Below, piece by piece: positions 1,010 to 25,194 of a DNA stretch of 64,000 nucleotides (positions are counted from its first letter, which is position 1; each line of letters starts with the position of its first letter). This DNA is from Nitrospirota bacterium. Lineage in GTDB: Bacteria; Nitrospirota; Nitrospiria; JACQBW01. Where the stretch lies: contig JACQBW010000003.1 in assembly GCA_016194305.1 (NCBI GenBank), positions 39,224-103,223 of the forward strand. Direction: 5' to 3'. The translations under genes and the position numbers were made by a program. The notes under the pieces are model-generated. The model was not told the origin of the DNA and ran no database searches. It saw only the letters and a list, made by a program, of their open reading frames with translations.

Positions 1010-1077
1010 CCTAACTTCCTCAGATATTACTTAAGTTAAGAACATCCGATTGCTAAGCAATCGAAAGGAGAAATAAT

Positions 1078-1791
1078 TTGGGAATGGAAGTACTAAAGAA
1101 AAAAGAAGAAATTGCCGCTGCTAGGATGAAACTGAGAGAAAGAGGACTATCCTTTATGAGCTCAGGTTTAAAGCGCTTCATTGATGCACTGGGACTATAT
1201 AACAGTATCGTTATCGGAGACTTCATTAAAAGTTGGGATGTATTGAAGACTGCAAATTTTATTGAATCCAATGTGAAAAAAGAGATGGCGGTGCTAGATA
1301 TTGGCGCATATGCCTCCGAGATATTATTTGTCCTGCGTGGTCTCAAATATACGAATTTAACAGGTATTGATCTGAATCCAAGAATAAAATCAATGCCATT
1401 TTCCGATACAATTCACTATGAGATATCTAATTTTATGAACACAAAGTTTAAAGACGACTCATTCGACGTAATCACTGCCATTTCGGTCATTGAGCATGGA
1501 TTCAACTCTAGAGACCTCTTATCGGAAGTCTCTCGTCTGCTCAAGTCCGGTGGATATTTTGTTGCCTCTTTTGACTACTGGCCAAATAAATTAGACACCA
1601 ATGGCATTAAAATGTTTGATATGGATTGGAAGATATTCTCTGAGGAAGAAGTTAAAGATATTATAGATGTTGGAAACCGGTTTAAATTAATTCCTTATGG
1701 AAATCTAGATTTTAGAGCGATAGATCAACCCATCAGTTGCGAAAATATGAATTACACGTTTGGTTGGTTGGTTCTGAGAAAAGTTCTTTAA
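1078..1791 (+). CDS. Class I SAM-dependent methyltransferase (Methyltransf_11-like).
   Basis: It has a motif I-like 'VLDIGAYAS' and a post-I acidic residue. 'VITAISVIEHGFNSRDLL...LLKSGGYFVASF' is typical of SAM MTases. AGGAG precedes the ATG at 1084. Confidence 0.7.
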   Translation: MGMEVLKKKEEIAAARMKLRERGLSFMSSGLKRFIDALGLYNSIVIGDFIKSWDVLKTANFIESNVKKEMAVLDIGAYASEILFVLRGLKYTNLTGIDLNPRIKSMPFSDTIHYEISNFMNTKFKDDSFDVITAISVIEHGFNSRDLLSEVSRLLKSGGYFVASFDYWPNKLDTNGIKMFDMDWKIFSEEEVKDIIDVGNRFKLIPYGNLDFRAIDQPISCENMNYTFGWLVLRKVL

Positions 1792-1824
1792 AAGAAATAA
1801 AATTGGATTGCAGACGGAGTTGGT

Positions 1825-2925: not shown

Positions 2926-2932
2926 GCTAAAT

Positions 2933-3955: not shown

Positions 3956-3967
3956 GGAGAATACGCG

Positions 3968-5227: not shown

Positions 5228-5378
5228 TGCTTTTCAAAATTTAGCGTTTTATTTTCGTAATCCGATATCTTTGCAGATACAGGGAATAAATTGGAATGTA
5301 TATTATCCGTTTTTTAAAGACTGAAATCATTCTTTTGATTTCCTTTTTGTTTCGATCTTCGCTCTTAGAATATAAAAG

Positions 5379-6467
5379 ATGAAAGAGTGTTTTATTAATG
5401 GTCGTTTTCTATCCAAACCGATAACTGGTGTTGAGCGATATGCTTATGAATTAGTCATTGCTTTGGATAAGCTATTGCAATCTGAAAAAATTGATCGAAA
5501 TGAGTATACCCTTACTATACTTACACCTAACGTTCCCAGCAGTGGCATAAAATTAAAATATATAAAAATAAGACAGGTTGGAAATTTTTCCGGGAATTTA
5601 TGGGAGCAAATTGAGCTGCCTTACTATTGTAAGGGCCAAGTATTATTTAATTTGTGTAATGCTGCTCCGCTATTTAAGAAAAAACAAGTGGTAACTATAC
5701 ATGACGCATCCGTTTTTGCCAATCAGGACACTTATTCTTTGAAGTTTAGGATATGGTATCAATTTCTTCTTAGGTCAATTGTTAAATGGTCTGCAGCTGT
5801 CATCACGGATTCGTTGTTTTCAAAAGATGAATTGATGAAATATTGTGGTGTCCCCAGAGAGAAAGTCCATGATATTTCACTGGGCGTCGATCACATTCTT
5901 TCTTTTAAATCGGATCACAGCATTCTTAGAAAATGGAATCTCGTAGAAAGCAGGTATATTTTGGCAGTTGGAAGTTCAAGCCCTAATAAAAATTTTGAAT
6001 CGTTAGTAAAGGCCGCAAAGCTGCTAAATCTAAACGATATACCTATAGTTATAGCGGGAGGAACAAATGATAAGATATTTAATAATCAAAAAACAGATTA
6101 TGCAATGAGTTGTATTCATGTTGGCTATGTAACGGATGGTGAGTTGAGATCTCTTTATGAACATGCCCTTTGTTTTGTATTTCCATCGCTTTACGAAGGG
6201 TTCGGATTGCCTCCATTGGAAGCAATGATGTGTGGATGTCCCGTAATCACCTCCAACGTCTCATCACTACCTGAAGTATGTCAAAATGGTGTTTTATATT
6301 GTGATCCGAACGATCTTAAGGATATTTCTGAGAAAATTTCGTCTGTTATTAAAGATGACGAATTAAGATCAAACCTAGTGGAACTCGGATTAATTCAATC
6401 AAAACAATATACCTGGGAATTATGTGGATTGAAGACGTTCGAAATATTAAGAGAAGTGATTAATTGA
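5379..6467 (+). CDS. GT4-family glycosyltransferase.
   Basis: The C-terminus has 'EGFGLPPLEAMMCGCPVITSNVSSLPEV' (EX7E motif). Confidence 0.8.
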   Translation: MKECFINGRFLSKPITGVERYAYELVIALDKLLQSEKIDRNEYTLTILTPNVPSSGIKLKYIKIRQVGNFSGNLWEQIELPYYCKGQVLFNLCNAAPLFKKKQVVTIHDASVFANQDTYSLKFRIWYQFLLRSIVKWSAAVITDSLFSKDELMKYCGVPREKVHDISLGVDHILSFKSDHSILRKWNLVESRYILAVGSSSPNKNFESLVKAAKLLNLNDIPIVIAGGTNDKIFNNQKTDYAMSCIHVGYVTDGELRSLYEHALCFVFPSLYEGFGLPPLEAMMCGCPVITSNVSSLPEVCQNGVLYCDPNDLKDISEKISSVIKDDELRSNLVELGLIQSKQYTWELCGLKTFEILREVIN

Positions 6468-7582
6468 AAGTAGCGCTTGTCCATGACTATTTAAATCAGT
6501 TCGGCGGAGCTGAACGGGTTGTTGAGATTCTTCACGAAATGTTTCCAGATGCACCTATATTTACCTCTTTTTTTATTCCGGAAGATTTGCCTTCCGTATT
6601 TACCAAGCTGGATATTCGGGAATCGCTTATGCGGTATTTACCTTTCCTGAAACGGCATTTTAAGAAATATCTTTTGTTATACCCTAAAGCATTTGAAAGT
6701 TTCGACTTGGAGGGGTATGATCTTATTTTGAGCAGTAGCAGCGCATTTGCCAAGGGGATTATTATACCGAAAAATGCCCTGCATATCTGCTATTGCTACA
6801 CCCCAATGAGATTTGTCTGGGACTATCATTCTTATATTGAAAAAGAAAAAATTGGTTCAACAATAAAAATGTTCTTGCCCTTCGCTATTCGCTATTTAAA
6901 GAAATGGGATCTTGCTTCCGTGAGAAATGTTCACCATTTCATTGCCATATCGGACCATATAAGAAAAAGAATAAGGAGATGCTATCAAATTGAATCAGAG
7001 ATAATTTATCCGCCAGTAAATACTTCTAGTTTTGAGCTGGGAGACGATCAAGAAAGCTATTTTCTGATCGTTTCGAGATTAAATGCTTATAAGAGTATTG
7101 ACATCGTAATCGAGGCATTCAACCAATTGGGACTCCCCCTGGTTATTGCAGGAGGCGGTCCTCAGAAAGAGGCATTAGAATCTATATCCAAACCGAACAT
7201 CACTTTTCTCGGAAAGGTGTCAGAAGAAAGGTTGAAAGATCTTTATCGTAAATCCAAGGCCTTTATATTTCCCGGTGAGGAGGACTTCGGAATGGCTCCT
7301 GTCGAGTCCATGGCATCTGGCCGTCCCGTCATTGCTTTCGGAAAAGGGGGAGCACTTGAAACTATCATAGATGGAAAGACAGGAATTTTTTTTCAGGAAC
7401 AAAATTCGGAATCAGTGATTGACGCAGTAAAACGATTTCATAAGATTTCATTTAACTCAATTGACATCAGAAAACATGCCAAGGCATTTGATAGCGCCCA
7501 ATTTAGAGAGAGGATGAAGCAATTTATTAAAAACAAATACGATGCCTTTCAATCGGAATTAAAAAGCTCCTCTTCCCCATAA
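6464..7582 (+). CDS. GT4-family glycosyltransferase.
   Basis: 'FPGEEDFGMAPVESMASGRPVIAFGKGGALETI' is present. Its start overlaps the stop of the upstream GT by 4 nt. Confidence 0.8.
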   Translation: MKVALVHDYLNQFGGAERVVEILHEMFPDAPIFTSFFIPEDLPSVFTKLDIRESLMRYLPFLKRHFKKYLLLYPKAFESFDLEGYDLILSSSSAFAKGIIIPKNALHICYCYTPMRFVWDYHSYIEKEKIGSTIKMFLPFAIRYLKKWDLASVRNVHHFIAISDHIRKRIRRCYQIESEIIYPPVNTSSFELGDDQESYFLIVSRLNAYKSIDIVIEAFNQLGLPLVIAGGGPQKEALESISKPNITFLGKVSEERLKDLYRKSKAFIFPGEEDFGMAPVESMASGRPVIAFGKGGALETIIDGKTGIFFQEQNSESVIDAVKRFHKISFNSIDIRKHAKAFDSAQFRERMKQFIKNKYDAFQSELKSSSSP

Positions 7583-8980
7583 CACAACAGGAATCGTTTT
7601 CAAAAATATCTCCATATCCAGTTTTAACGACCAGTTATCTATATATTTTAGATCTAGATTCATCCATTCTTCAAAATTGATGTTTCTATTTCTGCCGCTG
7701 ATTTGCCAGAGGCAGGTGATTCCCGGTTTCATTGAAAGCTTTCTTTTCTGCCATCTTTTGTAATGAGCCACTTCCTCCGGTAGGGGAGGACGAGGTCCCA
7801 CCAGGCTCATTTCACCCACAAGGACATTCCAAAATTGGGGAATTTCGTCCAGACTCGTTTTTCTTAACCATTTTCCCATCGAAGTAATTCGGGGATCATT
7901 TTTAATTTTAAAAACAGGGCCGTCCATTTCATTTAACACTGCGAGATCTCTCTTCTGTTCTTCTGCGTTGATGACCATTGACCTGAACTTATAAAGCCCG
8001 AAGTGGCGCCCGTTTCTTCCTACTCTTATTTGTTTGAAAAATACTGGACCGGGCGACGAGATCTTTATTAAAAAAACAATGATTCCATATATTGGAATCA
8101 GCGCAACAATTAGGAAAGTGGATACTATCACATCCATGATACGTTTAATGAGTAACAGAAATTCGTTATAAGGTACCGTTGAAAAAGTGAGGAGAGGAAT
8201 GCCATGGAGATCCTCGAGATGCACTTTTGCGATCATGTGGGGAAAGAAATTAACCGCGACTCTGGCGTTAATTCCTTCTTCCTCGCAAATTAGAAACGAC
8301 TCTTCCAGGTTCTCGAGCCTTTTCCTTGACACAGCAAATACCACTTCATCAATGACATGTTGATCAATAATCTTAGTCAGATCCTCAACAAGTCCAAGAA
8401 CAGGAAGTCCCATTATCTTTGTAAAGCGAGCTGATGGAATATCTGAAACGAAGCCAATAAATTTCAATCCCCAGTGTCCATTTCTTTCTATGCTTTTAGC
8501 AATTTCTCGAGCTCTTTTTCCGGTACCAACAATAACGATCGCTCTAAAATTAAAACCCTTCTTGCGAACAATTCTAGCGATTTCACGTATTAGGATACGA
8601 GCCATAGATAATAATAGAAACGAAAAAAATCCGAATGTTAAGATGAGAAAGCGACTTGCTGAATGGGCTCTAATGGCAAATACGAGAAACCCAATAAATA
8701 GAGTTCCTATCGCTGAAGTAATAAAAATTAACCTAATTTCATGCAATAGAGTGCGGGTTCGCTGAGACTCGTAAAGGCGGGAAAAATAAAAGAGTAAAGA
8801 CCATACCGGTAAAATAATAAGCAACAACCACGTTTGATTATAAAAAGGATCTGTAATGCCAATTGTTTTTATGAACGAAGAATTTCTAAAGAGGTAAGAT
8901 AGATAGAAACTCAGAAGAAGAATGGTTTGATCCAAAAAATAAAGCAAGAAAGATACAAGGCGAGTTTTTTGTCGCAGCAT
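7559..8980 (-). CDS. Polyprenyl-phosphate sugar phosphotransferase (WbaP/WcaJ-type priming glycosyltransferase).
   Basis: The N-terminus has four to five TM helices. The conserved C-terminal domain is 'PGPVFFKQIRVGRNGRHFGLYKFRSMV...DEIPQFWNVLVGEMSLVGPRP'. Confidence 0.85.
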   Translation of the reverse strand: MLRQKTRLVSFLLYFLDQTILLLSFYLSYLFRNSSFIKTIGITDPFYNQTWLLLIILPVWSLLFYFSRLYESQRTRTLLHEIRLIFITSAIGTLFIGFLVFAIRAHSASRFLILTFGFFSFLLLSMARILIREIARIVRKKGFNFRAIVIVGTGKRAREIAKSIERNGHWGLKFIGFVSDIPSARFTKIMGLPVLGLVEDLTKIIDQHVIDEVVFAVSRKRLENLEESFLICEEEGINARVAVNFFPHMIAKVHLEDLHGIPLLTFSTVPYNEFLLLIKRIMDVIVSTFLIVALIPIYGIIVFLIKISSPGPVFFKQIRVGRNGRHFGLYKFRSMVINAEEQKRDLAVLNEMDGPVFKIKNDPRITSMGKWLRKTSLDEIPQFWNVLVGEMSLVGPRPPLPEEVAHYKRWQKRKLSMKPGITCLWQISGRNRNINFEEWMNLDLKYIDNWSLKLDMEIFLKTIPVVLWGRGAF

Positions 8981-9221: not shown

Positions 9222-9373
9222 ATTGAAATTATTATTTCTCTTCTTTAAAATAACTTCCAGTCACTCTTCGTTCATGATCTATCAATAAAATTTAACCTTC
9301 ACGCGTTACGGAAGGGCCTTCTTTGTTCCGGATGTATTACAGAGGCGTCTTGAGAGATACACGAGGACAGGCC

Positions 9374-9502
9374 ATGTTCGAGTACCTTCTCCTTACTTTA
9401 TTTACTCTGGTTGCGATATATGGTTTGGAAATTTCATTTAAAGATATTTTGGCACCGGCATTCAAAAGGTTTACAGCCGTAGTCCGATGGCCAATACCTT
9501 AA
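9374..9502 (+). CDS. Small 42-aa hydrophobic ORF (MFEYLLLTLFTLVAIYGLEISFKDILAPAFKRFTAVVRWPIP). It may be a leaderless Flp-like peptide or a spurious ORF.
   Basis: GAGGA lies 6 nt upstream of the ATG. The N-terminus has EY at positions 3-4 followed by a hydrophobic helix, resembling a mature Flp N-terminus without a leader. The ORF was too short for the six-frame track. Confidence 0.2.
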   Translation: MFEYLLLTLFTLVAIYGLEISFKDILAPAFKRFTAVVRWPIP

Positions 9503-9519
9503 AATTAAAGGAGTACTTT

Positions 9520-9753
9520 ATGTTTAGAAAATTGGGTCAAAGAGGGCAGGGAATGACCGAATACATTATTATTCTGGCGATGGTCGCCGTCGGAGCAATT
9601 GTAGTTTTTAAACTGTTAGGCGCCGTCATTCGGGAAAAAGTTTCACAGGTGGGTACATCCATTTCAACCGGCAAACCTTCGGTCAAAGAAGGGAAGGAGA
9701 AAATGGACAATCCTGATAAGGGGCTGGACAATAAATTCTACGGCCGCGATTAA
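9520..9753 (+). CDS. flp: Flp-family type IVb pilin.
   Basis: The motif 'RGQG/MTEYIIILAMVAVGAIVVF' matches the Flp G/XXXXEY processing site followed by a hydrophobic stretch. AAGGAG lies 7 nt upstream of the ATG at 9520. The track ORF 9487 is an in-frame N-terminal extension. Confidence 0.8.
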   Translation: MFRKLGQRGQGMTEYIIILAMVAVGAIVVFKLLGAVIREKVSQVGTSISTGKPSVKEGKEKMDNPDKGLDNKFYGRD

Positions 9754-9819: not shown

Positions 9820-10455
9820 ATGTACGCCTCAGTCGCCTTCGGAACTGTGGCCTTGCACTTAACCGTTTCTCATCAGTCAGATACGGGAATATCGATGTTT
9901 TTATCAGTGCAGAACAGAAAAGGTGCAGTTTTAGCAGAGTGGATCATTGTATTTCCCCTTCTTTTATTCCTTTTCCTCGGAATAGCTCAGCTTGGGTTTA
10001 TCATGAACGCCAAGAATACAGTTACTTACGCGGCCTATTCCACCGCCCGCGTTCTTCTTACAAGAGGCAATCCAGCCCATTTTGGACAGAATCTCGAAGA
10101 GGAAGGGAGAAAATCAGCAGCGCTTGTCTGTATCGGGATTACCGGTATGGAAAACGTCACTCCCTATCTGCCGTCATCCGATCCCGATATTATCCATATT
10201 GCCAGCCGATATGACCAGGACGAAAGGTCTCATGCCGATTTCTTACAGAGATACTCTGCGGCACTTGATAAAACGCGTCTTAATATCCTTGAAATTAGGG
10301 AAGTTAACGACTTAATTAAAGTAAAAGTTGAAGTATTATATGACTATGAGCTCGATTTTCCGATTGTAAACCAGTTCATTGCAAGAGTATTTTCTGAGTT
10401 TTCCAGGTATGGCTATCCTCACATTACCCTCCGATCGACCGTTTCCCTGGGATAA
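9820..10455 (+). CDS. TadE-like pseudopilin. The true start is possibly the ATG at 9895.
   Basis: 'KGAVLAEWIIVFPLLLFLFLGIAQLGFI' matches the TadE/G-like N-terminal motif. Confidence 0.65.
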   Translation: MYASVAFGTVALHLTVSHQSDTGISMFLSVQNRKGAVLAEWIIVFPLLLFLFLGIAQLGFIMNAKNTVTYAAYSTARVLLTRGNPAHFGQNLEEEGRKSAALVCIGITGMENVTPYLPSSDPDIIHIASRYDQDERSHADFLQRYSAALDKTRLNILEIREVNDLIKVKVEVLYDYELDFPIVNQFIARVFSEFSRYGYPHITLRSTVSLG

Positions 10456-10457
10456 TC

Positions 10458-11447
10458 ATGGAATGTGGCAATCAAAAAGGCTCCATCTTCATTTTTTCAC
10501 TTTTTACCATTTTGGTATTAACGGGATTTTTGGCGATCGTGGCAAATGGCGGATATCTCATCACCAACAAAATACAGATACAAAATGCAGTTGACTCCGC
10601 TGCCTACTCAGGTGCTGTTGTTCAGGCAAGAGGATTAAACACGCTTTCGGCTTTAAATCAAACACTCGCAAATGTGGATTCGGTTTATCAGAAAGCTCTT
10701 TTCGCCTGGACGTCGGCTGTCCTGGCAGACGAAGGAGAGCCTGAAGGTCCAGCTCAAACCTTTTGGCGATCGATCTACGAGAAACCCTTGAGGGCCATCT
10801 GTTCCCCTGAATATCTTCGAAAAATTTATTGTATCGAGTCGAGAATTGTCTCCCGATTTAATGATCGTGTTAGAAGTGAAAAATGCCATTCAGGTAATTT
10901 ATCTTCAGATCATAGAAGTGTCGTAGCAGGGGAGTCCGAATCAATGGGAATAGCAAATCTGGGTCCCCTTGAGGTGCAAAATCTCCCATTTGCTGATTTC
11001 AGTGCCTGGTCGATGAATTTTGATCAAGGGAGCAAAAAACCAGGACTTTCTGTAGAGATTAATTCCGAAAGTGCAAAACATTTGACTGGAGCCGGTGCGA
11101 ATGAGGTTTCAATCGGAATTGTCTGTGACATTCCGGCGCGGTGGGGTCTGAAACCGGACTTTAATAAGAGTCAATATGTATTGAGCAGCGCAACCACGCC
11201 GGAAAAACAGGGACTTTATTTTTCGTATTATTTCGGAAGCGGAAATAAGTCTTATGCGATAGCCAAGGCCAAGCCATTCAGGAAGAACATGACTAGTCTT
11301 GAACTTCTGACCAGCGATTGGAACGCGCGACTGGTACCAATCAATGCCTCGCGTGAAGATGAAGAAACCTTTCAAAGATTCAGACGATCCACGGAAGGAA
11401 AAGAGTTAGGGTTTCAACAAGTGCCGACCGGTCCTCTATTGCACTGA
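10458..11447 (+). CDS. TadG-like Flp pilus assembly protein.
   Basis: 'IFIFSLFTILVLTGFLAIVANGGYLITNKIQIQNAVDSAAYSGAV' matches the TadG N-terminal domain signature. Confidence 0.65.
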   Translation: MECGNQKGSIFIFSLFTILVLTGFLAIVANGGYLITNKIQIQNAVDSAAYSGAVVQARGLNTLSALNQTLANVDSVYQKALFAWTSAVLADEGEPEGPAQTFWRSIYEKPLRAICSPEYLRKIYCIESRIVSRFNDRVRSEKCHSGNLSSDHRSVVAGESESMGIANLGPLEVQNLPFADFSAWSMNFDQGSKKPGLSVEINSESAKHLTGAGANEVSIGIVCDIPARWGLKPDFNKSQYVLSSATTPEKQGLYFSYYFGSGNKSYAIAKAKPFRKNMTSLELLTSDWNARLVPINASREDEETFQRFRRSTEGKELGFQQVPTGPLLH

Positions 11448-11467
11448 TGTGATCGGTAAGAGGTGAG

Positions 11468-11917
11468 GTGTCTGGTGTGAGAATTAAAAGAGATTTTTGT
11501 AATGAGCGGGGAATTGCGACAACGGAGTTCATCATAGTGAATCTGGTCTTTGTCATCTTTCTTGCCGGTTTTATGTTAATCGGGAACACCATATTAGCTA
11601 AAATGAAATCTTTGATCCTGGTCCGGAACATTGCTTTTAACCAGAATGATGGACTTGAAGAGATGAATTCGATTCACCATTCGGACGTGATTCAAGCAAG
11701 TAAGACGCCGTCCATCCTGCTAGATCGATGTCTTCGGCCTTATTTTGGGGTAAAAAAATCTAGAATTATTTCAGAGGCTCAAACTGAAGTGTCTACTCCG
11801 TTCAATGACTGGATTCCCCACAGAATTATATCGGATCAATATCACCTGGCTACCGATACCTGGAAAGCCCAATCATCACTGGCGATCGGCGTCCTGGTGG
11901 CAAGTTGTTCTGATTAA
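11468..11917 (+). CDS. TadE-like pseudopilin.
   Basis: 'RGIATTEFIIVNLVFVIFLAGFMLIGNT' matches the TadE-like motif. Confidence 0.65.
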   Translation: MSGVRIKRDFCNERGIATTEFIIVNLVFVIFLAGFMLIGNTILAKMKSLILVRNIAFNQNDGLEEMNSIHHSDVIQASKTPSILLDRCLRPYFGVKKSRIISEAQTEVSTPFNDWIPHRIISDQYHLATDTWKAQSSLAIGVLVASCSD

Positions 11918-11945
11918 ATTAACAGTGAGTCCCTAGAATAAAACA

Positions 11946-12779
11946 ATGACGAATCCAACATTAAAAAGGCTGTTTCCTCTTATTGTTTCGATTGGTGCAG
12001 GACTCCTGGCCGTGGCACTCCTTCAGATTTATTTGAAAAAGGAACGAAACAAGATGGATGAAGCGGAAAAACTGTTCGCAGTAGCCATGATAAATACCGA
12101 CCTGCCGGCCGGGACCACAATTGAAGAATCGTTTTTTGAAAAAAAAGAAATCCCAAAGAAATATTTCCATGAAAAAGAGGTACTTTTTTCGGATCTTTCT
12201 CAAGTTATGGGACAGCCGCTTAGGTATCCGGTAAAAAATGGCGAGACGCTTCTCTGGACCGGTATTAGCGGAAAACGGGACAATGCACTATCAACCCTTC
12301 TGGAGAAAGGAAAACGAGCTCTGACGCTGGGAGTAGATGAAATTACTTCGGTCTCAGGGCTCATTCAGCCAGGTGATCACGTCGATATTTTAGGAACATT
12401 TTTTGTCGGGAGCCTTCAAAAAGAAGGTTTTTCTCTAAATCAGGGAGAGGCAACAGTCATGCTTCAGCAAAACGTTCTTGTTTTGGCGGTTGGAACGGAA
12501 CTTCATCTTCGAAAGAATGGAAATGGGGATGAAAACAACGGATACAGCGGGTTGACAGTGGCCGTGACTCCTGAAGAGGCCGGTCACTTGATTCTCGCTC
12601 AAAATCGAGGAAAACTGATGCTGATACTGCGCCATTTCGGGGACACTGAGGTAATTTCCGACATTCCCAGGGTGACCTACGATGAAATTCGATTGGGAAA
12701 GGAAGTTCGTTATCTCTCGAAGGAGCGGAATCAAAAAATTATTGAAATCCCGCTAGAGAATTCCAAGAAGAGAAAGTAG
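11946..12779 (+). CDS. cpaB: Flp pilus assembly protein CpaB/RcpC.
   Basis: There is an N-terminal TM helix, then a SAF-like domain and a C-terminal beta domain. Its position immediately before the secretin fits CpaB. Confidence 0.75.
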   Translation: MTNPTLKRLFPLIVSIGAGLLAVALLQIYLKKERNKMDEAEKLFAVAMINTDLPAGTTIEESFFEKKEIPKKYFHEKEVLFSDLSQVMGQPLRYPVKNGETLLWTGISGKRDNALSTLLEKGKRALTLGVDEITSVSGLIQPGDHVDILGTFFVGSLQKEGFSLNQGEATVMLQQNVLVLAVGTELHLRKNGNGDENNGYSGLTVAVTPEEAGHLILAQNRGKLMLILRHFGDTEVISDIPRVTYDEIRLGKEVRYLSKERNQKIIEIPLENSKKRK

Positions 12780-12788
12780 CGTTGCAAT

Positions 12789-13784
12789 ATGGGATATTTG
12801 ATCTCAGCGTTGGGCCTGACATTGTCCTGCATTCTGCTTCTCCTACATACAGGATTTGCGAAAGAGATTATTGAAATAGATCAGACTGCTCCGACATTGT
12901 CCTATATCCCAAAATCGGAATCGATCGAATCCGGAAAAGCGCTTGAGATATCGATTCAGGCAACTGACAATCAGAATGTAAAAAGGGTGACCCTCTTTTA
13001 TCGATTGATCAGCAACGGAGAATATCATTCCGCTGAAATGATCAGAACTGACCAAGATCATTATGCCTACGTTATTCCGGGCGATGAAATTTACGGAGAA
13101 AGACTTGAGTACTATTTTACTGCAGAAGATAACGCCGGGAATAGAACCATGAAAGGATTTTCTGCAACTCCTCTTTTATTGTACCTGGTTCCGGTTGGAA
13201 AAAATTCAAATAAGAAGATAGTCCCTGTCCAATCAGCTCGTCATTCCCTGGTTACTGCGTCGTATTCAAACAATGCGCTTGTATTCACATTTGGAGAGTC
13301 CTTGATTCGATTAGCCGATCAGGGCAATCAATTAAATGTACCGTCCTATTATTACGGTGCAGAAGGCCAATTTCCCTACAAATCGGGATTTGAATTCGAC
13401 ATTGGTTTAAACGGAACTCACTCTGACTCAATCAAAATGAATTGGGTGGTTTACCAGAACCAAAGCGGGACATTGTACGAATCTCTTGACACCTTTTCCG
13501 TTTACGCTGGTCAAAGATTTTGCCAAAAGGAAACATCATTTCTGATAGGGGTCAACTATCTGACCGCTCGAATCAACGATAGAAATCTCTTAAATTCCAG
13601 CGGATTTCGTATTACCCGATTTGCCGATGAAAATTATAATCAAACTGGAGCAATCCTTGGAATTGGTTGGCATTACCCGGTCTCCAGTCATTTCTATGTA
13701 GGCATTGATCCGAAACTTAATATCTATTTCACAGGTCAATTGAATAGTCTGAGTTTTCCTATCGAGATTCGCTATGAATTCTAG
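12789..13784 (+). CDS. Outer-membrane protein with a signal peptide, an N-terminal Ig-like domain and a C-terminal beta-barrel ending ...IRYEF.
   Basis: The signal peptide is 'MGYLISALGLTLSCILLLLHTGFA'. The N-domain has a 'YYFTAEDNAGN' Ig-like signature. The C-terminal half has alternating aromatic/hydrophobic residues and a terminal Phe (OMP sorting signal). It is embedded in the tad locus. Confidence 0.45.
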   Translation: MGYLISALGLTLSCILLLLHTGFAKEIIEIDQTAPTLSYIPKSESIESGKALEISIQATDNQNVKRVTLFYRLISNGEYHSAEMIRTDQDHYAYVIPGDEIYGERLEYYFTAEDNAGNRTMKGFSATPLLLYLVPVGKNSNKKIVPVQSARHSLVTASYSNNALVFTFGESLIRLADQGNQLNVPSYYYGAEGQFPYKSGFEFDIGLNGTHSDSIKMNWVVYQNQSGTLYESLDTFSVYAGQRFCQKETSFLIGVNYLTARINDRNLLNSSGFRITRFADENYNQTGAILGIGWHYPVSSHFYVGIDPKLNIYFTGQLNSLSFPIEIRYEF

Positions 13785-15024
13785 AAAGAAACCCCTTTTG
13801 TTCCTTACATTGTTATTGCTGGGAATATCCAGTTCTGCTTTCGGCGCGGATGTCACTCTCAGCCAGGGTGAAAAAGTTAAGATTCCTTTTGATAATCTCC
13901 AAAGAATTATTGTGGCCGACGAAAAGGTGATCCAAGTAACGGTTCAATATTCGGAAAAAAAGATTGAAATAACAGGATTGGAGGAGGGAGAAAGCGAGCT
14001 TTCGTTTTTGGCTCCAAGTGGAGGTAAGAAGACTCTATTGGTTGAAGTGTTGAAAAAGACAAAATCTTTTAGAAAAAAGGCTCAAAGAAAAGAGATAAAT
14101 CGGGAACCCAAATTTAGAGAAATCGAGACAGAAATTCGAAACCAGGCAAGAACGATCCCTTTTTCGGTTCAGGTTACGGAGGAAAACATTACTCTTAAAG
14201 GGGAAGTTTATGACAATGCTTCCAGATCTAATCTGGAGCACATTGCCTCCACATATGGGAAGAAAGTAGTAAATCTGGTCAATGTGGTTCGTCCTATGGT
14301 CGAAATGGATGTAAAAATCGTACAGGTTGATCAGGTCGAAGGAGACTCGTTCGGAGGTAATCTTTTAAAAAATCTCGGATTAACTACGGATATGGGTTTC
14401 GCAACCGACATTAAGCCGCATCTTTCACTTGCCACGCAAGTACAATCTTCCCTTAACCTGCTGGTTAATCATGGCAAGGCAAAAGTCCTTTCAGAGCCCC
14501 ACCTCTCTTGCAGAACCGGAGATCATGCCACCTTTCACTCGGGAGGTGAGATCGGATTCAGGGTTTCAGGAGTTGGACATTCGAGTGTTAAATTTAAGGA
14601 GTACGGTCTGATTCTTCAAATTGAACCTAATATAGTTGAACAGGGGAAGATAGAAAGCCACATCACTATTGAGATTAGTGCACCTACCAGTTCACCGACC
14701 TCATCTCAGGATATCGGGTTTACGAAATTTAACGCAGATTCCCATATCGTCAGCAGGCCGAATGAGACGATCATCATTGCAGGCCTTGCGGAGAATATTC
14801 AACATCATTTTCAGGAACAAACTCCTCTTCTAGGAAATATCCCGGTTTTAAGTCTCTTTTTCAGCGAAAAACAGGATCAACATTCACGGCGGGATCTTCT
14901 TATGATCGTCACTCCGACTTTTACGAAAGTCGAAAGAATTGAAGATTACGAACCTGCTTCTGTTATACAGAAAGAAGGTCTCGAAAAAGAAATAAATGGA
15001 GATATTTCGGAGATTGAACCCTGA
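13774..15024 (+). CDS. cpaC: Tad secretin CpaC/RcpA.
   Basis: There is a signal peptide. The N-terminal pilus-formation domain 'VTLSQGEKVKIPFDNLQRIIVADEKVIQVTV' is present. The C-terminal secretin domain has 'IIIAGLAEN...TPLLGNIPVLSLFFSEK...RRDLLMIVTP'. Confidence 0.85.
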   Translation: MNSRKKPLLFLTLLLLGISSSAFGADVTLSQGEKVKIPFDNLQRIIVADEKVIQVTVQYSEKKIEITGLEEGESELSFLAPSGGKKTLLVEVLKKTKSFRKKAQRKEINREPKFREIETEIRNQARTIPFSVQVTEENITLKGEVYDNASRSNLEHIASTYGKKVVNLVNVVRPMVEMDVKIVQVDQVEGDSFGGNLLKNLGLTTDMGFATDIKPHLSLATQVQSSLNLLVNHGKAKVLSEPHLSCRTGDHATFHSGGEIGFRVSGVGHSSVKFKEYGLILQIEPNIVEQGKIESHITIEISAPTSSPTSSQDIGFTKFNADSHIVSRPNETIIIAGLAENIQHHFQEQTPLLGNIPVLSLFFSEKQDQHSRRDLLMIVTPTFTKVERIEDYEPASVIQKEGLEKEINGDISEIEP

Positions 15025-16589
15025 TGCCCTATGTTCGAGTATTAAACCGTAGCGTCGAAATTCATAAAGACCCTTTTTTGATAGGAAGATCTCCTGACGG
15101 CGATTTGGTTCTGCCGGAAGCGTCTGTCTCCAGGAAACATGCCCAGATTATTGTCTTCAATGGAAAGTATTTTCTTGAAGATCTAAAAAGCAGATCAGGG
15201 ATAAAGATAAATGACCTTGTTGTTGCCAAGGGTGAATTGAGAGACGATGATCAAATTACGATCGGACCATTTAACCTCATTTTCTCCTTGCATTCTGAAA
15301 GCAGTTCCCCCAGACACGCGGAAGATGAAATTTATGCTTTAAAAAAAGAATTTCACAGGGAGTTGTTTAATCAGATTGATGTTAAAAAAATATCGCTGGA
15401 GTTCCATTCTGACGATGATATCAGAAAAATGACCAAATCGGCACTGGAAGTAATTATTCAAAATAATCAAGAGAGGATCCCAAAAAGTGTTGACGTTGAT
15501 CATTTTGTGAAAGAACTTATGGATGAAATACTGGGACTCGGACCCATAGAGCCCTTTCTGTCAGATCCCGAAATAACTGAGGTGATGGTCAATGGTTCAA
15601 ATCAGATTTATATCGAAAAAAAAGGGAAATTGATCCTGACAGGAAAGAGATTTATGGGAGACGAACAGGTTCGAACCGTCATTGAACGGATCGTTCATCC
15701 GATTGGCAGAAGAATCGATGAGAGCTCTCCAATGGTTGATGCGCGTTTAAGAGACGGCAGCAGAGTGAATGCCATTATCCCTCCGCTTTCCTTAAATGGT
15801 CCCATAATAACGATTCGAAAGTTTCCTCCCACTCAAATGGGGGAGGAACAATTAACCAAAAACGAATCGCTCACCAAGAAAATGTTAGAGTTTCTTAAGT
15901 TTTGCGTTTCCAACCGAATGAATATCTTGATTTCCGGTGGAACCGGATCAGGAAAGACGACACTATTAAATGTTTTGTCCGGATTCATTCCGTCCGGAGA
16001 ACGGATCGTCACGATTGAAGATTCTGCGGAGTTGAGGCTAGCTCAACCCCATGTGATATCTCTTGAGACCCGTCCAGCGAATATGGAAGGGAGGGGATTA
16101 ATAACGATCCGGGACCTTGTTCGAAACTCTCTTCGAATGCGTCCCGACAGAATCGTAATTGGTGAGTGTCGTGGCGGAGAAGCGTTTGATCTGCTTTCGG
16201 CAATGAATACCGGCCATGATGGATCCCTCTCCACCATTCACGCAAATTCCCCCCGCGATGCCCTTTCACGGTTTGAAACTCTAGTTTTAATGGCGGGCAT
16301 GGATCTTCCCTCTAGAGCAATTCGTCAGCAAATTGCCTCTGCGGTTCAAATTATTATTCAGCAATCCAGATTCTCAGACGGCTCAAGGAAAATAACCCAT
16401 ATTGTTGAAGTGACGGGAATGGAAGGAGAGACTTTTACACTGCAGGAAATATATCGCTATAAGCGGGAAGGGTGGCACGAAGATGGAAAGCTGAAAGGTC
16501 GATTTGAATCATCTTCATTAATGCCATTGCTTTGTACTCGCCTTCGAAATGAAGGACATCACATTCCGACTGAATGGTTTGAAAATTAA
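15024..16589 (+). CDS. cpaF: CpaF/TadA secretion ATPase with an N-terminal FHA domain.
   Basis: The FHA domain is 'FLIGRSPDGDLVLPEASVSRKHAQIIVFNGKYFLEDLKSRSGIKIND'. Walker A is 'ISGGTGSGKTTLLN'. Walker B, Asp and His boxes typical of the VirB11/CpaF family are present. Confidence 0.85.
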   Translation: MPYVRVLNRSVEIHKDPFLIGRSPDGDLVLPEASVSRKHAQIIVFNGKYFLEDLKSRSGIKINDLVVAKGELRDDDQITIGPFNLIFSLHSESSSPRHAEDEIYALKKEFHRELFNQIDVKKISLEFHSDDDIRKMTKSALEVIIQNNQERIPKSVDVDHFVKELMDEILGLGPIEPFLSDPEITEVMVNGSNQIYIEKKGKLILTGKRFMGDEQVRTVIERIVHPIGRRIDESSPMVDARLRDGSRVNAIIPPLSLNGPIITIRKFPPTQMGEEQLTKNESLTKKMLEFLKFCVSNRMNILISGGTGSGKTTLLNVLSGFIPSGERIVTIEDSAELRLAQPHVISLETRPANMEGRGLITIRDLVRNSLRMRPDRIVIGECRGGEAFDLLSAMNTGHDGSLSTIHANSPRDALSRFETLVLMAGMDLPSRAIRQQIASAVQIIIQQSRFSDGSRKITHIVEVTGMEGETFTLQEIYRYKREGWHEDGKLKGRFESSSLMPLLCTRLRNEGHHIPTEWFEN

Positions 16590-16597
16590 GTTCACTA

Positions 16598-17470
16598 TTA
16601 TCGAAATAAATAATCGAGTGCAATTCCAATAAATATAAAAGTTCCGAAGAGTCCATGGTTTTTAAAGAGTTTAAACGCAATTTCGGGAGCTGTATTTCTT
16701 TTTAGTTGGTAGACCTGAACAGAAATAAAGATTCCCGTGATCAACAGACTGATAAAATACAGCGTGTGCAAGTGAGCAAGAATGCCCGTCCACAAGAGAA
16801 ATAAGAGGAAAGAAATACAAGAAAGTCCGAACGCAAGCCAAACATATTGGCCAAACAAGATAGCCGTTGATTTCACACCGATCCTCATATCATCTTCCCT
16901 GTCCATTAAAGCGTATATCGTGTCATAGGCAAGAGACCAAAAAATGTTTGCGGTAAAGATCAATAGGGGAGTGAATTCGATCTTGTCCTTAACCGCCACC
17001 CACGCCATGATGACGCCCCAACCAAAACTGATTCCGAGTACCAGTTGGGGAGTTGAAATAATTCTCTTGGTAAAGGGGTAAACGATGGCAAGGAAAATTC
17101 CGATCACACTTAATAGAATCGTAAATGGGTTGAGCATCATGACCAGAAGAAAAGCGAGAACGGAGAGGATGGCAAACAGGATGACGCCTTCTTTTACAGT
17201 AACCTCGCCGCTTGCGATGGGTCTGGCCTTCGTTCTCTGAACCTGGGGATCAATTTTCCGGTCCGCAATATCATTGATCACACAACCTGCGCTTCGCATG
17301 AGAAAAGAGCCTATGGTAAAGATGGCAAGCAATTTGATGGAAGGCTTTCCGTCACTTGCAATCCAGAGCGACCAAAGCGTTGGCATTAATACGAGAACGG
17401 TGCCTACCGGCCGATCGAACCGAATGAGCCTCAGATACACGTTAAACTTGTGACGTGTGAGCCAGATCAA
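16598..17470 (-). CDS. ubiA: 4-hydroxybenzoate polyprenyltransferase.
   Basis: It carries the UbiA motifs 'NDIADRKID' and 'YDTIYALMDREDD'. It is polytopic. Confidence 0.85.
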   Translation of the reverse strand: MIWLTRHKFNVYLRLIRFDRPVGTVLVLMPTLWSLWIASDGKPSIKLLAIFTIGSFLMRSAGCVINDIADRKIDPQVQRTKARPIASGEVTVKEGVILFAILSVLAFLLVMMLNPFTILLSVIGIFLAIVYPFTKRIISTPQLVLGISFGWGVIMAWVAVKDKIEFTPLLIFTANIFWSLAYDTIYALMDREDDMRIGVKSTAILFGQYVWLAFGLSCISFLLFLLWTGILAHLHTLYFISLLITGIFISVQVYQLKRNTAPEIAFKLFKNHGLFGTFIFIGIALDYLFR

Positions 17471-17477
17471 ATTTAAA

Positions 17478-18122
17478 CTACAGGTTTAGGAGGCGAGGTG
17501 AAAACACCTCGTAAATCGAAGCGAGGAATTGTTGTGGAGAAGAAAGTCTGTAATGACGATACCATAGTGTCGTATCCACGGACACTTTGAATTCTCGCGA
17601 TAGGTCTCTGGATTGGATCGTGCCGAATCCAAGTTTATCTTTGACGGAAGGGATTTTCATTTTTTCAATTAATTCGCCGATGGAAAATATTTGCGATAGT
17701 AACGCTTCATGCACAGAAGGATTCAGGCTTTGTAGAGGGAGGAAAGAGCATGCATAGACCAGCTTTTCCCCTTCCTGACTGAGAATCCAGATCTCCCTTT
17801 GCAATCCCTTTTCAGGATCTTTAAGGTCAAGAAACCGAACGAGTTGAGGGTCGGCTTCATAGAGTCCCTGTCGGATCACGTCAATGTGGACTGGAGCGGT
17901 CAAAAGTGCTTGAAGTGTGGAGGTGAGGGTTCCGCCTCCCGTCAGAAAAATTCGGTGAAATGAGCTAATCGGTAAATGTTTTGAACCGTCTGCGAAAGAA
18001 GCGATACTCTCCCATTTTTCAGAATGGGGGAATTGAACAATTTGTTCCATTTTGATAGAATACAAAACGAGATATGGCATGTCAATGACTGATTGGTCGA
18101 CGAATTGAATCGGGGCTTTCAT
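17478..18122 (-). CDS. Chorismate lyase-like (UbiC/DUF98-type) protein.
   Basis: It sits immediately upstream of ubiA in the same orientation. Size and composition fit the chorismate-lyase fold. The call rests on family resemblance only. Confidence 0.45.
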   Translation of the reverse strand: MKAPIQFVDQSVIDMPYLVLYSIKMEQIVQFPHSEKWESIASFADGSKHLPISSFHRIFLTGGGTLTSTLQALLTAPVHIDVIRQGLYEADPQLVRFLDLKDPEKGLQREIWILSQEGEKLVYACSFLPLQSLNPSVHEALLSQIFSIGELIEKMKIPSVKDKLGFGTIQSRDLSREFKVSVDTTLWYRHYRLSSPQQFLASIYEVFSPRLLNL

Positions 18123-18137
18123 GAAAAATGATAGCCC

Positions 18138-18166
18138 TTGACATTATTTATAACCTATTGTATTTT
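18138..18166 (+). promoter_or_regulatory. Sigma70-type promoter: TTGACA, 17 nt, TATTTT. It serves the ihfA-like gene.
   Basis: Read directly from the sequence, about 40 nt upstream of the 18205 start. Confidence 0.45.
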
Positions 18167-18204
18167 ATATTCAATTTTAAATCTGGGCCGAGCAGGATTG
18201 TTAA

Positions 18205-18552
18205 ATGAGAAAAGCGGACATTACGACAGAACTATTTGAAAAGATAGGCGTCTCTAAAAAGGAGGGTGCCGAAATTCTTGAAATCATACTTTCGACCGTC
18301 AAGGATGTCCTGAAAAAAGGTGAAGTTGTTAAAATAGCCGGATTTGGAAATTTTGTCGTGAGGCAAAAAAAGGAAAGAAAAGGACGAAATCCGAAGACGG
18401 GACAAGAGATTGGCATTACGCCACGAAAAGTCGTTACTTTTAGACCGAGTCAGGTTTTCAAAAAATATGTTAACGACCCCGCCAATATCACCAAGAATGA
18501 AGAATCCGATACGATCTTAAAAGGGGAGCAGGATAATAATATCACTTTGTAA
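18205..18552 (+). CDS. ihfA: Integration host factor alpha-like / HU-family DNA-binding protein.
   Basis: The HU/IHF fold signature 'GFGNFVVRQKKERKGRNPKTGQEIGITPRKVVTFRPSQVFK' is present. Confidence 0.75.
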   Translation: MRKADITTELFEKIGVSKKEGAEILEIILSTVKDVLKKGEVVKIAGFGNFVVRQKKERKGRNPKTGQEIGITPRKVVTFRPSQVFKKYVNDPANITKNEESDTILKGEQDNNITL

Positions 18553-18561
18553 AAAGTCGGT

Positions 18562-18942
18562 ATGAAAAAAGAGCCCAGCAAGATTCAGATAAGGAAATCC
18601 GATTCCAAAAAAGTCGTAGGCCGGAAAATGACGGGCCATGCCAAAATGTTTTATAAAATTGGTGAGGTAAGCAAATTAACCGGACTCGAATCGTATGTGC
18701 TTCGATTTTGGGAAAATGAATTTACTCTCCTCCATCCAAGAAAGAATGATGGAGGTCAAAGAGTCTATCTTCAGAAGGATATTGAGTTGATTTTGAAAAT
18801 AAAGAAAATGCTCTATGAAGAAGGGTATACCATAGCGGGAGCAAAGAAGGTCCTAAAGCAGTTTCCCGGTCAAATCACTTCTGATTTGCCTTTAGGCCGC
18901 ATTCAGAAGGAACTTAGAGGTATTCTTGAACTCTTACATTAG
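18562..18942 (+). CDS. MerR-family transcriptional regulator.
   Basis: The HTH is 'YKIGEVSKLTGLESYVLRFWENEF'. It follows the IHF-like gene immediately. Confidence 0.75.
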   Translation: MKKEPSKIQIRKSDSKKVVGRKMTGHAKMFYKIGEVSKLTGLESYVLRFWENEFTLLHPRKNDGGQRVYLQKDIELILKIKKMLYEEGYTIAGAKKVLKQFPGQITSDLPLGRIQKELRGILELLH

Positions 18943-23049: not shown

Positions 23050-24379
23050 TGAACTCAGCGATAAGTTAAACGCGATCTTCAAGAAAATCCGGGGAGTGGG
23101 TGTTTTAAGAGAAGAGAACATCACCGAAGCGCTCAGAGAAGTCCGACTGGCCCTTCTTGAAGCCGATGTTCATTTTAAGGTGGTGAAAGGTTTTGTCGAT
23201 TCAGTCAAAGAGAAGGCCATAGGCCAAAAGGTCATGGAAAGTCTGACTCCGGGTCAGCAGATGATCAAAATTGTCTATGATGAGCTGGCTCAATTGTTGG
23301 GTGGACAACAGGCAAAAATTCCGATGTCTTCCCGTCCTCCCACCCGATTCATGCTGGTCGGTTTGCAGGGAGCGGGGAAGACGACGACTGCCGGAAAGCT
23401 GGCCTTATTCTACAAGAAAGAGGGAAAACGAGTCCTCTTGGTTCCGGCAGACCCCTATCGTCCCGCCGCGAAATCCCAGCTGGAGTTTCTTGGAAAACAG
23501 ATCGACGTTACGGTTGATTCGTCGGACCTGAACGAACCCGTCCTGATCGTGGCCAATGCCATAAAAAGAGCGGAAAGAGAGGGTTTTGAACTCGTCATTA
23601 TCGATACGGCGGGCCGGCTCCAGATGGATGAAGCCCTGATGATGGAGCTTCAGGAAATAAAAAAACTTGCCCAACCTGATGAAATTCTGATGGTGGCTGA
23701 CGGAATGATCGGCCAGGAAGCGGTCAAAGTCGTGGAAGGTTTTCATCAAAGGTTAGGGGTGACCGGAATTATTTTAACTAAAATGGAAGGGGATGCAAGA
23801 GGCGGTGCGCTCCTTTCGATGAAACAGGTCACCGGAATGCCAGTACGATTTATGGGGACTGGCGAAAAGCTGGAAATGCTGGAATTTTTTTATCCTGACC
23901 GGATGGCTTCACGAATTCTTGGGATGGGCGATGTGCTTTCACTTATTGAACTGGCCCAGGAGAATTTTGACAAGAGCGAGGCTGAAAACGTCGCCAGGAA
24001 ACTTCAGACCAATCAGTTCACTCTGTCCGATTTTAAAGAGCAGATCAAACAGTTTAAGAAACTCGGTTCGATTGAAAAAGTCCTTTCCATGATTCCCGGA
24101 GCCGGACAATTGAAACTCAAAGGGGATATGGCGATGCCTGAAAAGGAATTTGTAAGAATTGAAGCGATAATTGATTCAATGACCCTGAAGGAGCGTGACA
24201 ATCCCGGAGTGATCAACGGCTCAAGGCGGAAGCGTATTGCGAAAGGAAGCGGAACTTCCGTTCAGGAGATCAACAAGCTTCTCAAGCAGTTTATGGAAGC
24301 AAAGAAAATGATGAAAACCTTAAGCGGCAAGGGCGGAGCGAGAAATCTATGGCGTTCAATATCTTCAATGAAAGGTTAA
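23042..24379 (+). CDS. ffh: Signal recognition particle protein Ffh.
   Basis: The N domain and a G domain with 'LVGLQGAGKTTT' and 'IDTAGRL' are present. The Met-rich M domain has 'GRRKRIAKGSG'. Confidence 0.9.
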   Translation: MLNELSDKLNAIFKKIRGVGVLREENITEALREVRLALLEADVHFKVVKGFVDSVKEKAIGQKVMESLTPGQQMIKIVYDELAQLLGGQQAKIPMSSRPPTRFMLVGLQGAGKTTTAGKLALFYKKEGKRVLLVPADPYRPAAKSQLEFLGKQIDVTVDSSDLNEPVLIVANAIKRAEREGFELVIIDTAGRLQMDEALMMELQEIKKLAQPDEILMVADGMIGQEAVKVVEGFHQRLGVTGIILTKMEGDARGGALLSMKQVTGMPVRFMGTGEKLEMLEFFYPDRMASRILGMGDVLSLIELAQENFDKSEAENVARKLQTNQFTLSDFKEQIKQFKKLGSIEKVLSMIPGAGQLKLKGDMAMPEKEFVRIEAIIDSMTLKERDNPGVINGSRRKRIAKGSGTSVQEINKLLKQFMEAKKMMKTLSGKGGARNLWRSISSMKG

Positions 24380-25194
24380 AGTCTTTATTTGACTTTACTT
24401 CAGACGGAGTGATTATTCTCGATCATGCGATGAAAATCGTCGAGATTAATCCCGCGGCCGAAGCCATGACCGGTTGGAAGGCATCTGAAAGAAGAGGGTC
24501 TCCATTTCCGTATGAAAAACTGATTTCCCTGGATCCCGCCCAAAAAAAAGAAACAGGCGTTGACCTCTTTAATACGGCCGAGAGCCGCCATGACCTGGAA
24601 ATGGAAGTGACCCTTCTTCATGGCAATAAACTTCATCTTCCCGCGACCAGCTTTCCGATTTCCGGTGAAGGAGGGGAGCAATTTTTTGGTTTGATCCTTG
24701 AAAATATCTTAATGAAAGAGGGGGTTGTTGAGAATTTAATCCGACAGGAACGATTGGACGAGATGACCGGCCTCCTCCATAAGGACTATTTTCAACAGGT
24801 CTCAGGGGATGAAATAAGAAGAATGAACAAGAACGGTGGAACCCTCGGAGCAATTCTGATTCAAATCAAGAATCTGGACAAGATCCGGGAGAAGTTTGGC
24901 TCCGTCAAAGGAAGCGAAACGATCAAAAAGGTGGGAAGCCTGGTTAAGGGCAATTCCAGAGATATCGACCTGGTCTGCCGTTATGACGAAAACGAGTTTC
25001 TGGTCCTGCTCATTAATTCGGATACTGCCAAAATGAGTATCATTCTAAGGCGGCTCAAAGAAAAACTGGTTCATTCGAATAAAAGCGCCCATTTTCCTGC
25101 TCCGGTTCGGATCCGGTTGGGAAACGTGCTCGTGAATGACCACTATGAGGAAATCTTTAAAGCGGTTAAACTCTCGCTTGATAAATTTGTATAA
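24349..25194 (+). CDS. PAS-domain protein with a degenerate GGDEF domain. The active site is Y-D-E-N-E-F in place of GG(D/E)EF.
   Basis: The PAS-like N-terminus is 'DGVIILDHAMKIVEINPAAEAMTGW'. The GGDEF-fold C-terminus has 'LDEMTGLLHKDYF' and 'RYDENEFLVLL'. Its start overlaps the ffh stop by 31 nt. Confidence 0.65.
   Translation: MAFNIFNERLKSLFDFTSDGVIILDHAMKIVEINPAAEAMTGWKASERRGSPFPYEKLISLDPAQKKETGVDLFNTAESRHDLEMEVTLLHGNKLHLPATSFPISGEGGEQFFGLILENILMKEGVVENLIRQERLDEMTGLLHKDYFQQVSGDEIRRMNKNGGTLGAILIQIKNLDKIREKFGSVKGSETIKKVGSLVKGNSRDIDLVCRYDENEFLVLLINSDTAKMSIILRRLKEKLVHSNKSAHFPAPVRIRLGNVLVNDHYEEIFKAVKLSLDKFV

Follow-up and report, generated by a model that had tools for sequence, protein, structure and literature searches.

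The stretch of 64,000 nucleotides analysed here (hereafter the window; contig JACQBW010000003.1 of an uncultured Nitrospirota bacterium known from a metagenome assembly, GCA_016194305.1) encodes, at positions 15024-16589 of the forward strand, a protein of 521 amino acids (aa) in which a forkhead-associated (FHA) domain and a complete CpaF/TadA ATPase share one polypeptide. This FHA-ATPase fusion is real and far beyond chance. We consider it somewhat better than an even bet that the following holds as a whole: the protein serves as motor ATPase in a type IVc pilus-like machine of the Tad (Flp) type and belongs to the FHA-fused CpaF lineage (class III, KilF-like), its FHA domain docks or licenses the motor in the role of TadZ, and recognition by this domain has been weakened, altered or made independent of phosphorylation in the Nitrospirae clade of the window protein. 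The fusion is not unusual: such fusions are published as class III CpaF (PMC12019362) and as KilF (PMC8460266), and they dominate the homolog list. PF00498 and PF00437 are found together in nearly every one of the 120 top-scoring database homologs, which come from metagenome-assembled genomes (MAGs) with labels such as Nitrospirae, Deltaproteobacteria, Myxococcota, Verrucomicrobiae and Aureabacteria; one NCBI entry, from a Nitrospirae MAG, matches the window protein at 100% identity. The FHA-CpaF fusion is thus already described and widespread, and the window protein is a further member. What is new here is the mutual exclusivity of FHA and TadZ, the in-operon signalling genes of relatives, the loss of a phosphopeptide-contacting Asn and the conservation of a truncated gene layout.

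The gene and its parts are as follows.

15024-16589, forward strand: FHA-CpaF motor ATPase, 521 aa (Pfam, homologs, solved-structure match, AlphaFold2 model, Foldseek).
15024-15293, forward strand: FHA domain, residues 1-90 (Pfam; alignment to GarA, Rv1747 and Rv0020c; family column counts).
15294-15308, forward strand: very short linker SESSS, joining the FHA domain to the opening helix of a three-helix bundle (AlphaFold2).
15936-15962, forward strand: Walker A motif GGTGSGKTT, residues 305-313 (columns invariant across the 77-homolog alignment).

That an FHA domain is fused to a complete CpaF ATPase with this Walker A motif had been proposed from the letters alone, and Pfam, motifs, the AlphaFold2 model and Foldseek now agree on it. 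The domain search suggested at the time matches both families, FHA (PF00498; residues 19-81, E 4.8e-16, scoring 59 bits where the cut-off is 20.7) and T2SSE (PF00437; residues 171-447, E 4.5e-62). The open reading frame (ORF) starts with ATG, and the stop codon of cpaC overlaps this start in the sequence TGATG at 15022-15026, a pattern typical of translational coupling. Besides the Walker A motif, the Asp box TIEDSAEL, the Walker B motif DRIVIGECR and the His box TGHDGSLSTIHAN are intact, and the ATPase motif columns are invariant in the alignment of 77 homologs. The closest solved relative is CpaF of Caulobacter crescentus, matched with E 2.5e-120 across residues 97-500 (entries 9e24/8rkd at about 1e-120) and about 45% identical over the CpaF core. 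An AlphaFold2 model built from 77 sequences has a mean predicted local distance difference test score (pLDDT) of 84.6, and its top structural match in Foldseek is the CpaF structure 8rjf (TM 0.80). The protein thus combines a T2SSE/PilT-like core, all four motifs and similarity to CpaF structures, the marks of CpaF/TadA identity, and the motor role of its ATPase part follows from what is established for the family. In NCBIfam there is no fusion-specific model and the top match, TIGR03819, falls under its cut-off; identity as a conjugation-type TadA (TIGR03819) or as VirB11 was rejected in view of the pilus gene context together with the CpaF match.

Support for a TadZ-like role of the FHA domain comes from a census of CpaF loci. 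A scan of species-representative genomes collected 80 loci, FHA-fused and FHA-less, and after removal of near-duplicates the census, including the window and its relatives, comprised 84. Within 10 kb, a TadZ-like gene is found at none of the 28 FHA-fused loci. At the 56 FHA-less loci TadZ is adjacent or fused in 51, more distant in 4 and lacking in 1, and T2SSF genes lie downstream of CpaF in 39 of 47. At seven further FHA-type loci, precomputed Pfam matches show the same FHA/TadZ pattern. In two loci a TadZ-like (ParA/CbiA) module and CpaF are encoded in one ORF (Bdellovibrio sp. L053, 9149-11371; Omnitrophota MAG L055, 2362-4542), and there the TadZ module holds the N-terminal position taken by FHA in the window protein. 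When the ATPase core is placed in a neighbour-joining tree, which is a rough one, nearly all FHA-fused CpaFs fall into one clade; the exclusivity would accordingly go back to one or a few evolutionary events instead of 28 separate ones. Within this clade the window protein sits with L003, L036 and L005/L006, apart from KilF, and is not sister to the Myxococcaceae KilF loci L015/L033, and its subclade holds no FHA-less CpaF except one that is TadZ-fused. In the literature searched we found no paper stating the FHA/TadZ exclusivity. One locus, L010, labelled as a Streptomycetaceae MAG, carries FHA-CpaF together with a secretin, and in the tree it falls among betaproteobacterial sequences; its taxonomic label looks doubtful, and it may be a mis-binned contig.

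Some relatives carry phospho-signalling genes in the same operon. At locus L087 the FHA-CpaF shares 53% identity with the window protein, and the FHA fused to it is fully canonical. In close succession on a single strand, this locus encodes Peptidase_A24, TadE, TadG, CpaB, CpaC, FHA-CpaF, TadB, TadC and DUF192, and then an FHA protein, a double-FHA/TPR protein, a Pkinase, a PP2C and a second Pkinase, on which Pfam and home-built hidden Markov models (HMMs) agree. The L087 region 10921-18668, whose PP2C protein is large, is a complete in-operon phospho-signalling module and would serve well as a model for the function of the fusion. Kinases, PP2C and three accessory FHA domains are found at L024, and accessory FHA proteins follow TadB/TadC at L088 and L089. 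At L088 (10001-20113) there are three FHA-T2SSE paralogs with accessory FHA/YscD-like proteins, beside a sigma-54 activator and a histidine kinase. Because the operons of some relatives carry FHA proteins, Pkinase and PP2C, these observations support a root of the FHA-CpaF lineage in Ser/Thr phospho-signalling. Nevertheless, a kinase lies within 10 kb at only 4 of the 28 FHA loci. The first-pass annotation had reported that no Ser/Thr kinase, phosphatase or TadZ is encoded in the window, and Pfam and six-frame HMM searches bear this out; since the absence of a nearby kinase is the norm of the family, it says little.

In the AlphaFold2 model residues 1-90 of the window protein form an all-beta sandwich (pLDDT 86-94), and the region is also matched by the related model Yop-YscD_cpl (E 6.4e-12). 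Values below 50 occur only at residues 92-95; the helix begins at residue 96, and there is no long disordered stretch. The linker to the three-helix bundle is longer in relatives, where it is rich in Ala, Pro and Glu. A conserved linker Thr, as a possible intramolecular phosphothreonine (pThr) site, was sought; the window linker (SESSS...) contains no Thr and is not conserved. The FHA signature consists of Gly, Arg, Ser, His and Asn, with Arg, Ser and Asn contacting the phosphopeptide (PMC4037201); these residues are G69/R70/S85/H88/N107 in Rad53 and G32/R33/S47/H50/N69 in Rv1747 (PMC5549992). Aligned to GarA, the first FHA domain of Rv1747 and Rv0020c, the window FHA keeps Gly21-Arg22 (15084-15089) and Ser36-Arg-Lys-His39 (15129-15140). 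Its loop 4 reads SRSGIKIN (15189-15212) where the motif is S-x-N-G-T-x-V-N: Ser58 (15195-15197), in the column of N69 of Rv1747 and of the NG of GarA/Rv0020c, replaces the invariant Asn, and Ile60 replaces Thr (N58S, T60I). Four of the five signature residues of a canonical pThr-binding FHA are thus present, while the contact residues are down from three to two. The domain had been called a classic FHA, which overstates the case given Ser58 and Ile60 in loop 4. Loss of the Arg/Ser/Asn triad had been named as the observation that would refute it, and here the outcome is divided, with Arg22 and Ser36 in place and the Asn absent in the window protein and throughout its clade.

Asn occupies position 58 in 99 of 108 FHA-CpaF homologs, and all nine exceptions are Nitrospirae-clade proteins (61-100% identical to the query), in which the residue is S, V, V, T, T, T, A or L. 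This variation at residue 58 indicates relaxed constraint at the site, and the clade-wide loss of the Asn makes it doubtful that pThr gating operates in this organism. Erosion of the triad is common in the wider family: in the genome sample Arg, Ser and Asn are all kept in only 7 of 28 fused FHA domains and the triad is incomplete in 21, and in beta- and gammaproteobacterial fused FHA domains Ser36 is usually lost too. Accessory FHA proteins are found at 1 of the 13 loci without Ser36 and are frequent at loci that have it. At L019 (Acidithiobacillus ferrianus, 9932-13798) the CpaF has a strongly degenerate FHA-like N-terminus with no Pfam FHA match at E 1e-3, followed, in place of TadB/TadC, by a TadE-like gene and then a gene for a Pesticin/phage-lysozyme-like toxin.

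These residues bear directly on the possibility that the domain is a canonical pThr reader, so that a Hanks-type kinase encoded elsewhere in the genome phosphorylates a partner, such as a platform or accessory protein, and thereby switches pilus assembly on. The conservation of Arg22, Ser36, Arg37 and His39 in all members of the Nitrospirae clade speaks for such a switch, as does locus L087, where two Pkinase genes and PP2C share the operon with a fully canonical fused FHA; a published precedent exists in the T6SS, or type VI secretion system, where Fha of Agrobacterium tumefaciens is reported to bind pThr on TssL (PMC3953482). The substitutions in loop 4, with Ser in place of the invariant Asn contact (S, V, T, A or L across the clade) and Ile in place of Thr60, count against it, as do the lack of a kinase, PP2C or accessory FHA in the 64 kb and the conservation of the kinase-free, truncated layout within the clade. 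We regard this switch as possible, though on the unlikely side. The earlier proposal that phospho-signalling stands in for TadZ/CpaE control fares accordingly: FHA-CpaF does occur without TadZ, and some relatives do have Pkinase/PP2C, but with the Asn lost the gating by pThr is in doubt here.

At the other extreme, the FHA could be a decaying, functionless relic attached to a protein that acts as a plain CpaF. Within the clade the domain evolves faster than the ATPase (47-70% identity against 76-90%), residue 58 is free to vary, the partner genes found in relatives are missing here, and the incomplete triads of 21 of 28 fused FHA domains could be read in the same way. Yet every clade member, down to those of 61% identity, retains the FHA in full; G21, R22, S36, H39, D53, S56 and G59 show no variation or almost none; and the predicted fold is confident. 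Moreover, the subclade contains no FHA-less CpaF apart from the TadZ-fused one, and with TadZ absent the motor must be recruited by something else. Given the 47-70% identity within the clade, the confident fold and the presence in every member, the FHA is not decaying wholesale and is still under constraint, and we consider a relic improbable.

FHA-cpaF is the last gene of a co-directional Tad-like operon that extends from 9.3 to 16.6 kb and is closed by a convergent gene, which starts 8 bases past the FHA-cpaF stop. The other genes are as follows.

9323-9502, forward strand: tentative candidate Flp-type prepilin 1, 59 aa, with RG/QAMFEY and a hydrophobic stretch (motif by eye).
9487-9753, forward strand: candidate Flp-type prepilin 2, 88 aa, with RG/QGMTEY and a hydrophobic helix (motif and position).
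9820-10455, forward strand: TadE-like pseudopilin, 211 aa (Pfam TadE PF07811, E 4.3e-12).
10458-11447, forward strand: TadG-like protein, 329 aa (Pfam Tad PF13400, E 4.5e-08).
11468-11917, forward strand: 149-aa protein with a TadE-like N-terminus, G/IATTEF and a hydrophobic helix (translation; no Pfam match).
11946-12779, forward strand: CpaB/RcpC, 277 aa (Pfam RcpC, E 1.5e-25; NCBIfam TIGR03177 pilus_cpaB, 139 bits against a cut-off of 71).
12789-13784, forward strand: 331-aa secreted protein with a signal peptide and the C-terminus ...IEIRYEF (weak Pfam match to OMP_b-brl, E 0.007).
13774-15024, forward strand: CpaC/RcpA-type secretin, 416 aa (Pfam Secretin, E 6.1e-28; T2SS-T3SS_pil_N, E 3.8e-06).
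16598-17470, reverse strand: UbiA prenyltransferase, convergent, outside the system, marking the operon end (Pfam UbiA, E 5.4e-67).

Prepilin 1 has no Pfam match and was not called by the Logan gene caller; prepilin 2 has no Pfam or NCBIfam match but was called as a gene in both L001 and L002. Two short Logan contigs duplicate the operon. The 149-aa protein, whose conservation is confined to the Nitrospirae clade, is probably a minor pilin. The 331-aa ORF between cpaB and cpaC ends in Phe in the style of outer-membrane beta-barrels and has no significant family match; its homologs are found in Nitrospirae-clade loci only. The product is probably located in the outer membrane and may be an RcpB- or TadD-like partner of the secretin. 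Co-encoded Tad components (Flp pilin, TadE/G, CpaB and CpaC) are thus found at the locus. Pfam was run on each substantial ORF of the window, and home-built HMMs for T2SSF, TadZ, Hanks kinase, PP2C and FHA were run on six-frame stop-to-stop ORFs of at least 50 aa. Across the 64 kb these searches returned no Pkinase, PP2C or TadZ and no second FHA protein, and TadB/TadC (T2SSF) and prepilin peptidase (Peptidase_A24) were likewise not found, so that the assembly platform is missing from the window and the locus encodes part of a machine. A scan for promoters and terminators gave sites no more frequent than expected by chance.

The layout had been described as free of cyclic di-GMP (c-di-GMP) genes, which is incorrect for the window: it contains a PAS-GGDEF gene (24349-25194, forward strand) and two PilZ genes (60263-60643 and 60653-61018, both reverse strand), none of them within the operon. 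The PAS-GGDEF gene sits 7.8 kb 3' of cpaF and is syntenic in L090, and the tandem PilZ genes lie near a PAS hybrid histidine kinase (56257-58875, forward strand). Directly upstream of the operon, positions 50-8980 hold a polysaccharide biosynthesis cluster with a Wzy-like gene, several GT2/GT4 glycosyltransferases, methyltransferases and, on the minus strand, a Bac_transf priming transferase.

The truncated layout is conserved. In L090 and L091, two loci of the Nitrospirae clade (67-70% identity), CpaF is also the last gene and meets UbiA in the same convergent junction, after which follow genes for chorismate lyase, HU, MerR, SurE, VTT, CysS, SpoU, Ffh and PAS-GGDEF. The cluster also ends in FHA-CpaF at L005, L006 and L093, at the Myxococcaceae KilF loci L015/L033 and in Acidithiobacillus. 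Split Tad or Kil gene sets are documented in Myxococcus (PMC8460266) and Bdellovibrio, and for this reason we assume, as the most economical solution, that the platform is encoded elsewhere in the genome.

Such a division of genes raises the question of whether the locus belongs to a contact-dependent killing or secretion apparatus of the Kil type, as in Myxococcus, instead of an adhesive pilus. KilF, too, is an FHA-CpaF, and Kil gene sets are likewise divided between clusters, with the platform elsewhere (PMC8460266). The combination of an FHA-fused ATPase, no TadZ and platform genes located separately is the same here, the Myxococcaceae loci L015 and L033 likewise end without T2SSF genes, and in Acidithiobacillus the CpaF with degenerate FHA adjoins the pesticin/lysozyme-like toxin gene described above. 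Against this, the window has neither accessory FHA nor toxin genes, its CpaF groups away from KilF in the rough tree of the ATPase core, the secretin has the usual Tad N-terminal domain, and the distribution of genes differs, pilins and CpaB standing beside the ATPase here. We therefore judge a Kil-type apparatus very improbable.

Comparison with named systems places the window protein further. In the cryo-EM study of CpaF, class III is defined by an N-terminal FHA architecture (FHA-IDR-3HB-NTD-CAD), for example in Achromobacter xylosoxidans E3HIW0, and is described as mostly betaproteobacterial (PMC12019362). The window protein shares with class III an N-terminal FHA on the same polypeptide as a complete CpaF core; unlike it, the window protein comes from Nitrospirae, with the fusion found in many other lineages of our sample, and has a linker of about 5 residues where class III has a disordered one. 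Sampled beta- and gammaproteobacterial members are without Ser36 and Asn58, whereas the window protein keeps Arg and Ser. The Myxococcus Kil study reports KilF as the central ATPase, with an N-terminal FHA fusion, in clusters rich in FHA proteins, and its authors found Kil-like systems only in predatory deltaproteobacteria (PMC8460266). With KilF of M. xanthus the window shares the FHA-CpaF as single ATPase, the lack of TadZ and platform genes away from the ATPase; it differs in having none of the two to three accessory FHA proteins that directly follow kilF (L015, L033), in the division of genes between clusters, and in its FHA, which lacks the full R/S/N triad kept by the KilF type. Canonical Tad/Cpa systems (Aggregatibacter, Caulobacter) have in common with the window the Flp pilins, TadE/TadG, CpaB, the CpaC secretin and the CpaF motor, but they carry TadZ immediately upstream and TadB/TadC immediately downstream of CpaF, where the window has none. 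T6SS Fha/PpkA/PppA offers a functional parallel in which an FHA couples a membrane nanomachine to Ser/Thr phospho-signalling (for example A. tumefaciens Fha-TssL, PMC3953482); there a stand-alone FHA protein acts on a known pThr target, whereas the window FHA is part of the motor protein itself and lacks the Asn contact. The full set of kinase, PP2C and FHA is present in the operon of the relative L087.

In C. crescentus it is established that CpaF powers both the insertion and the extraction of pilin. By analogy, the C-terminal 420 residues of the window protein would form a hexameric CpaF motor that works in both directions by way of a TadB/TadC platform, with platform and prepilin peptidase presumably supplied from elsewhere in the genome. 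The FHA domain, set about 5 residues from the three-helix bundle, would dock or recruit the motor to the membrane platform or a scaffold, a task that falls to TadZ/CpaE in ordinary Tad systems. We infer that the FHA is most likely such a docking or recruitment module; the FHA lineage is always without TadZ. In relatives, docking is probably gated by Thr phosphorylation, in view of the additional FHA proteins, Hanks kinases and PP2C found in their operons. In the Nitrospirae clade, where the in-cis partners are gone and the Asn that binds the peptide backbone has been lost, recognition is probably weakened, altered or phospho-independent on account of both losses.

Several points weigh against this reading. 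The near-monophyly of the FHA-fused CpaFs means that the locus count overstates the statistical weight of the exclusivity, which is no proof of functional substitution. The phosphate-contacting Arg22, Ser36 and Arg37 are retained, and genuine pThr binding may thus be possible. No TadB/TadC was found in the window, which covers 64 kb of a 154-kb contig, and the trans-encoded platform is an assumption by analogy with Myxococcus and Bdellovibrio; likewise, the binding partner of the FHA enters as a role that we infer rather than observe. Finally, the TadZ, T2SSF, kinase and PP2C detectors were home-built, those for kinase and PP2C from hand-entered seeds and cross-checked against precomputed Pfam matches on L087 only.

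Taken by itself the window is of little import, as it adds one Nitrospirae example to a described class of pilus ATPases. For the family, we tentatively suggest, at somewhat less than even likelihood, that FHA-CpaF forms a distinct, near-monophyletic Tad-like lineage across many phyla in which FHA replaced TadZ, originally under in-operon control by kinase and PP2C, and which would have drifted repeatedly to phospho-independent docking through loss of kinase genes and pThr contacts in many sublineages, the Nitrospirae clade included. The FHA/TadZ exclusivity, the operons with kinase and PP2C and the erosion of the triad in most lineages together yield a testable hypothesis for how the motor is recruited in TadZ-less Tad machines, and Kil-like FHA-CpaF systems are far more widespread than the predatory deltaproteobacteria of their original description.

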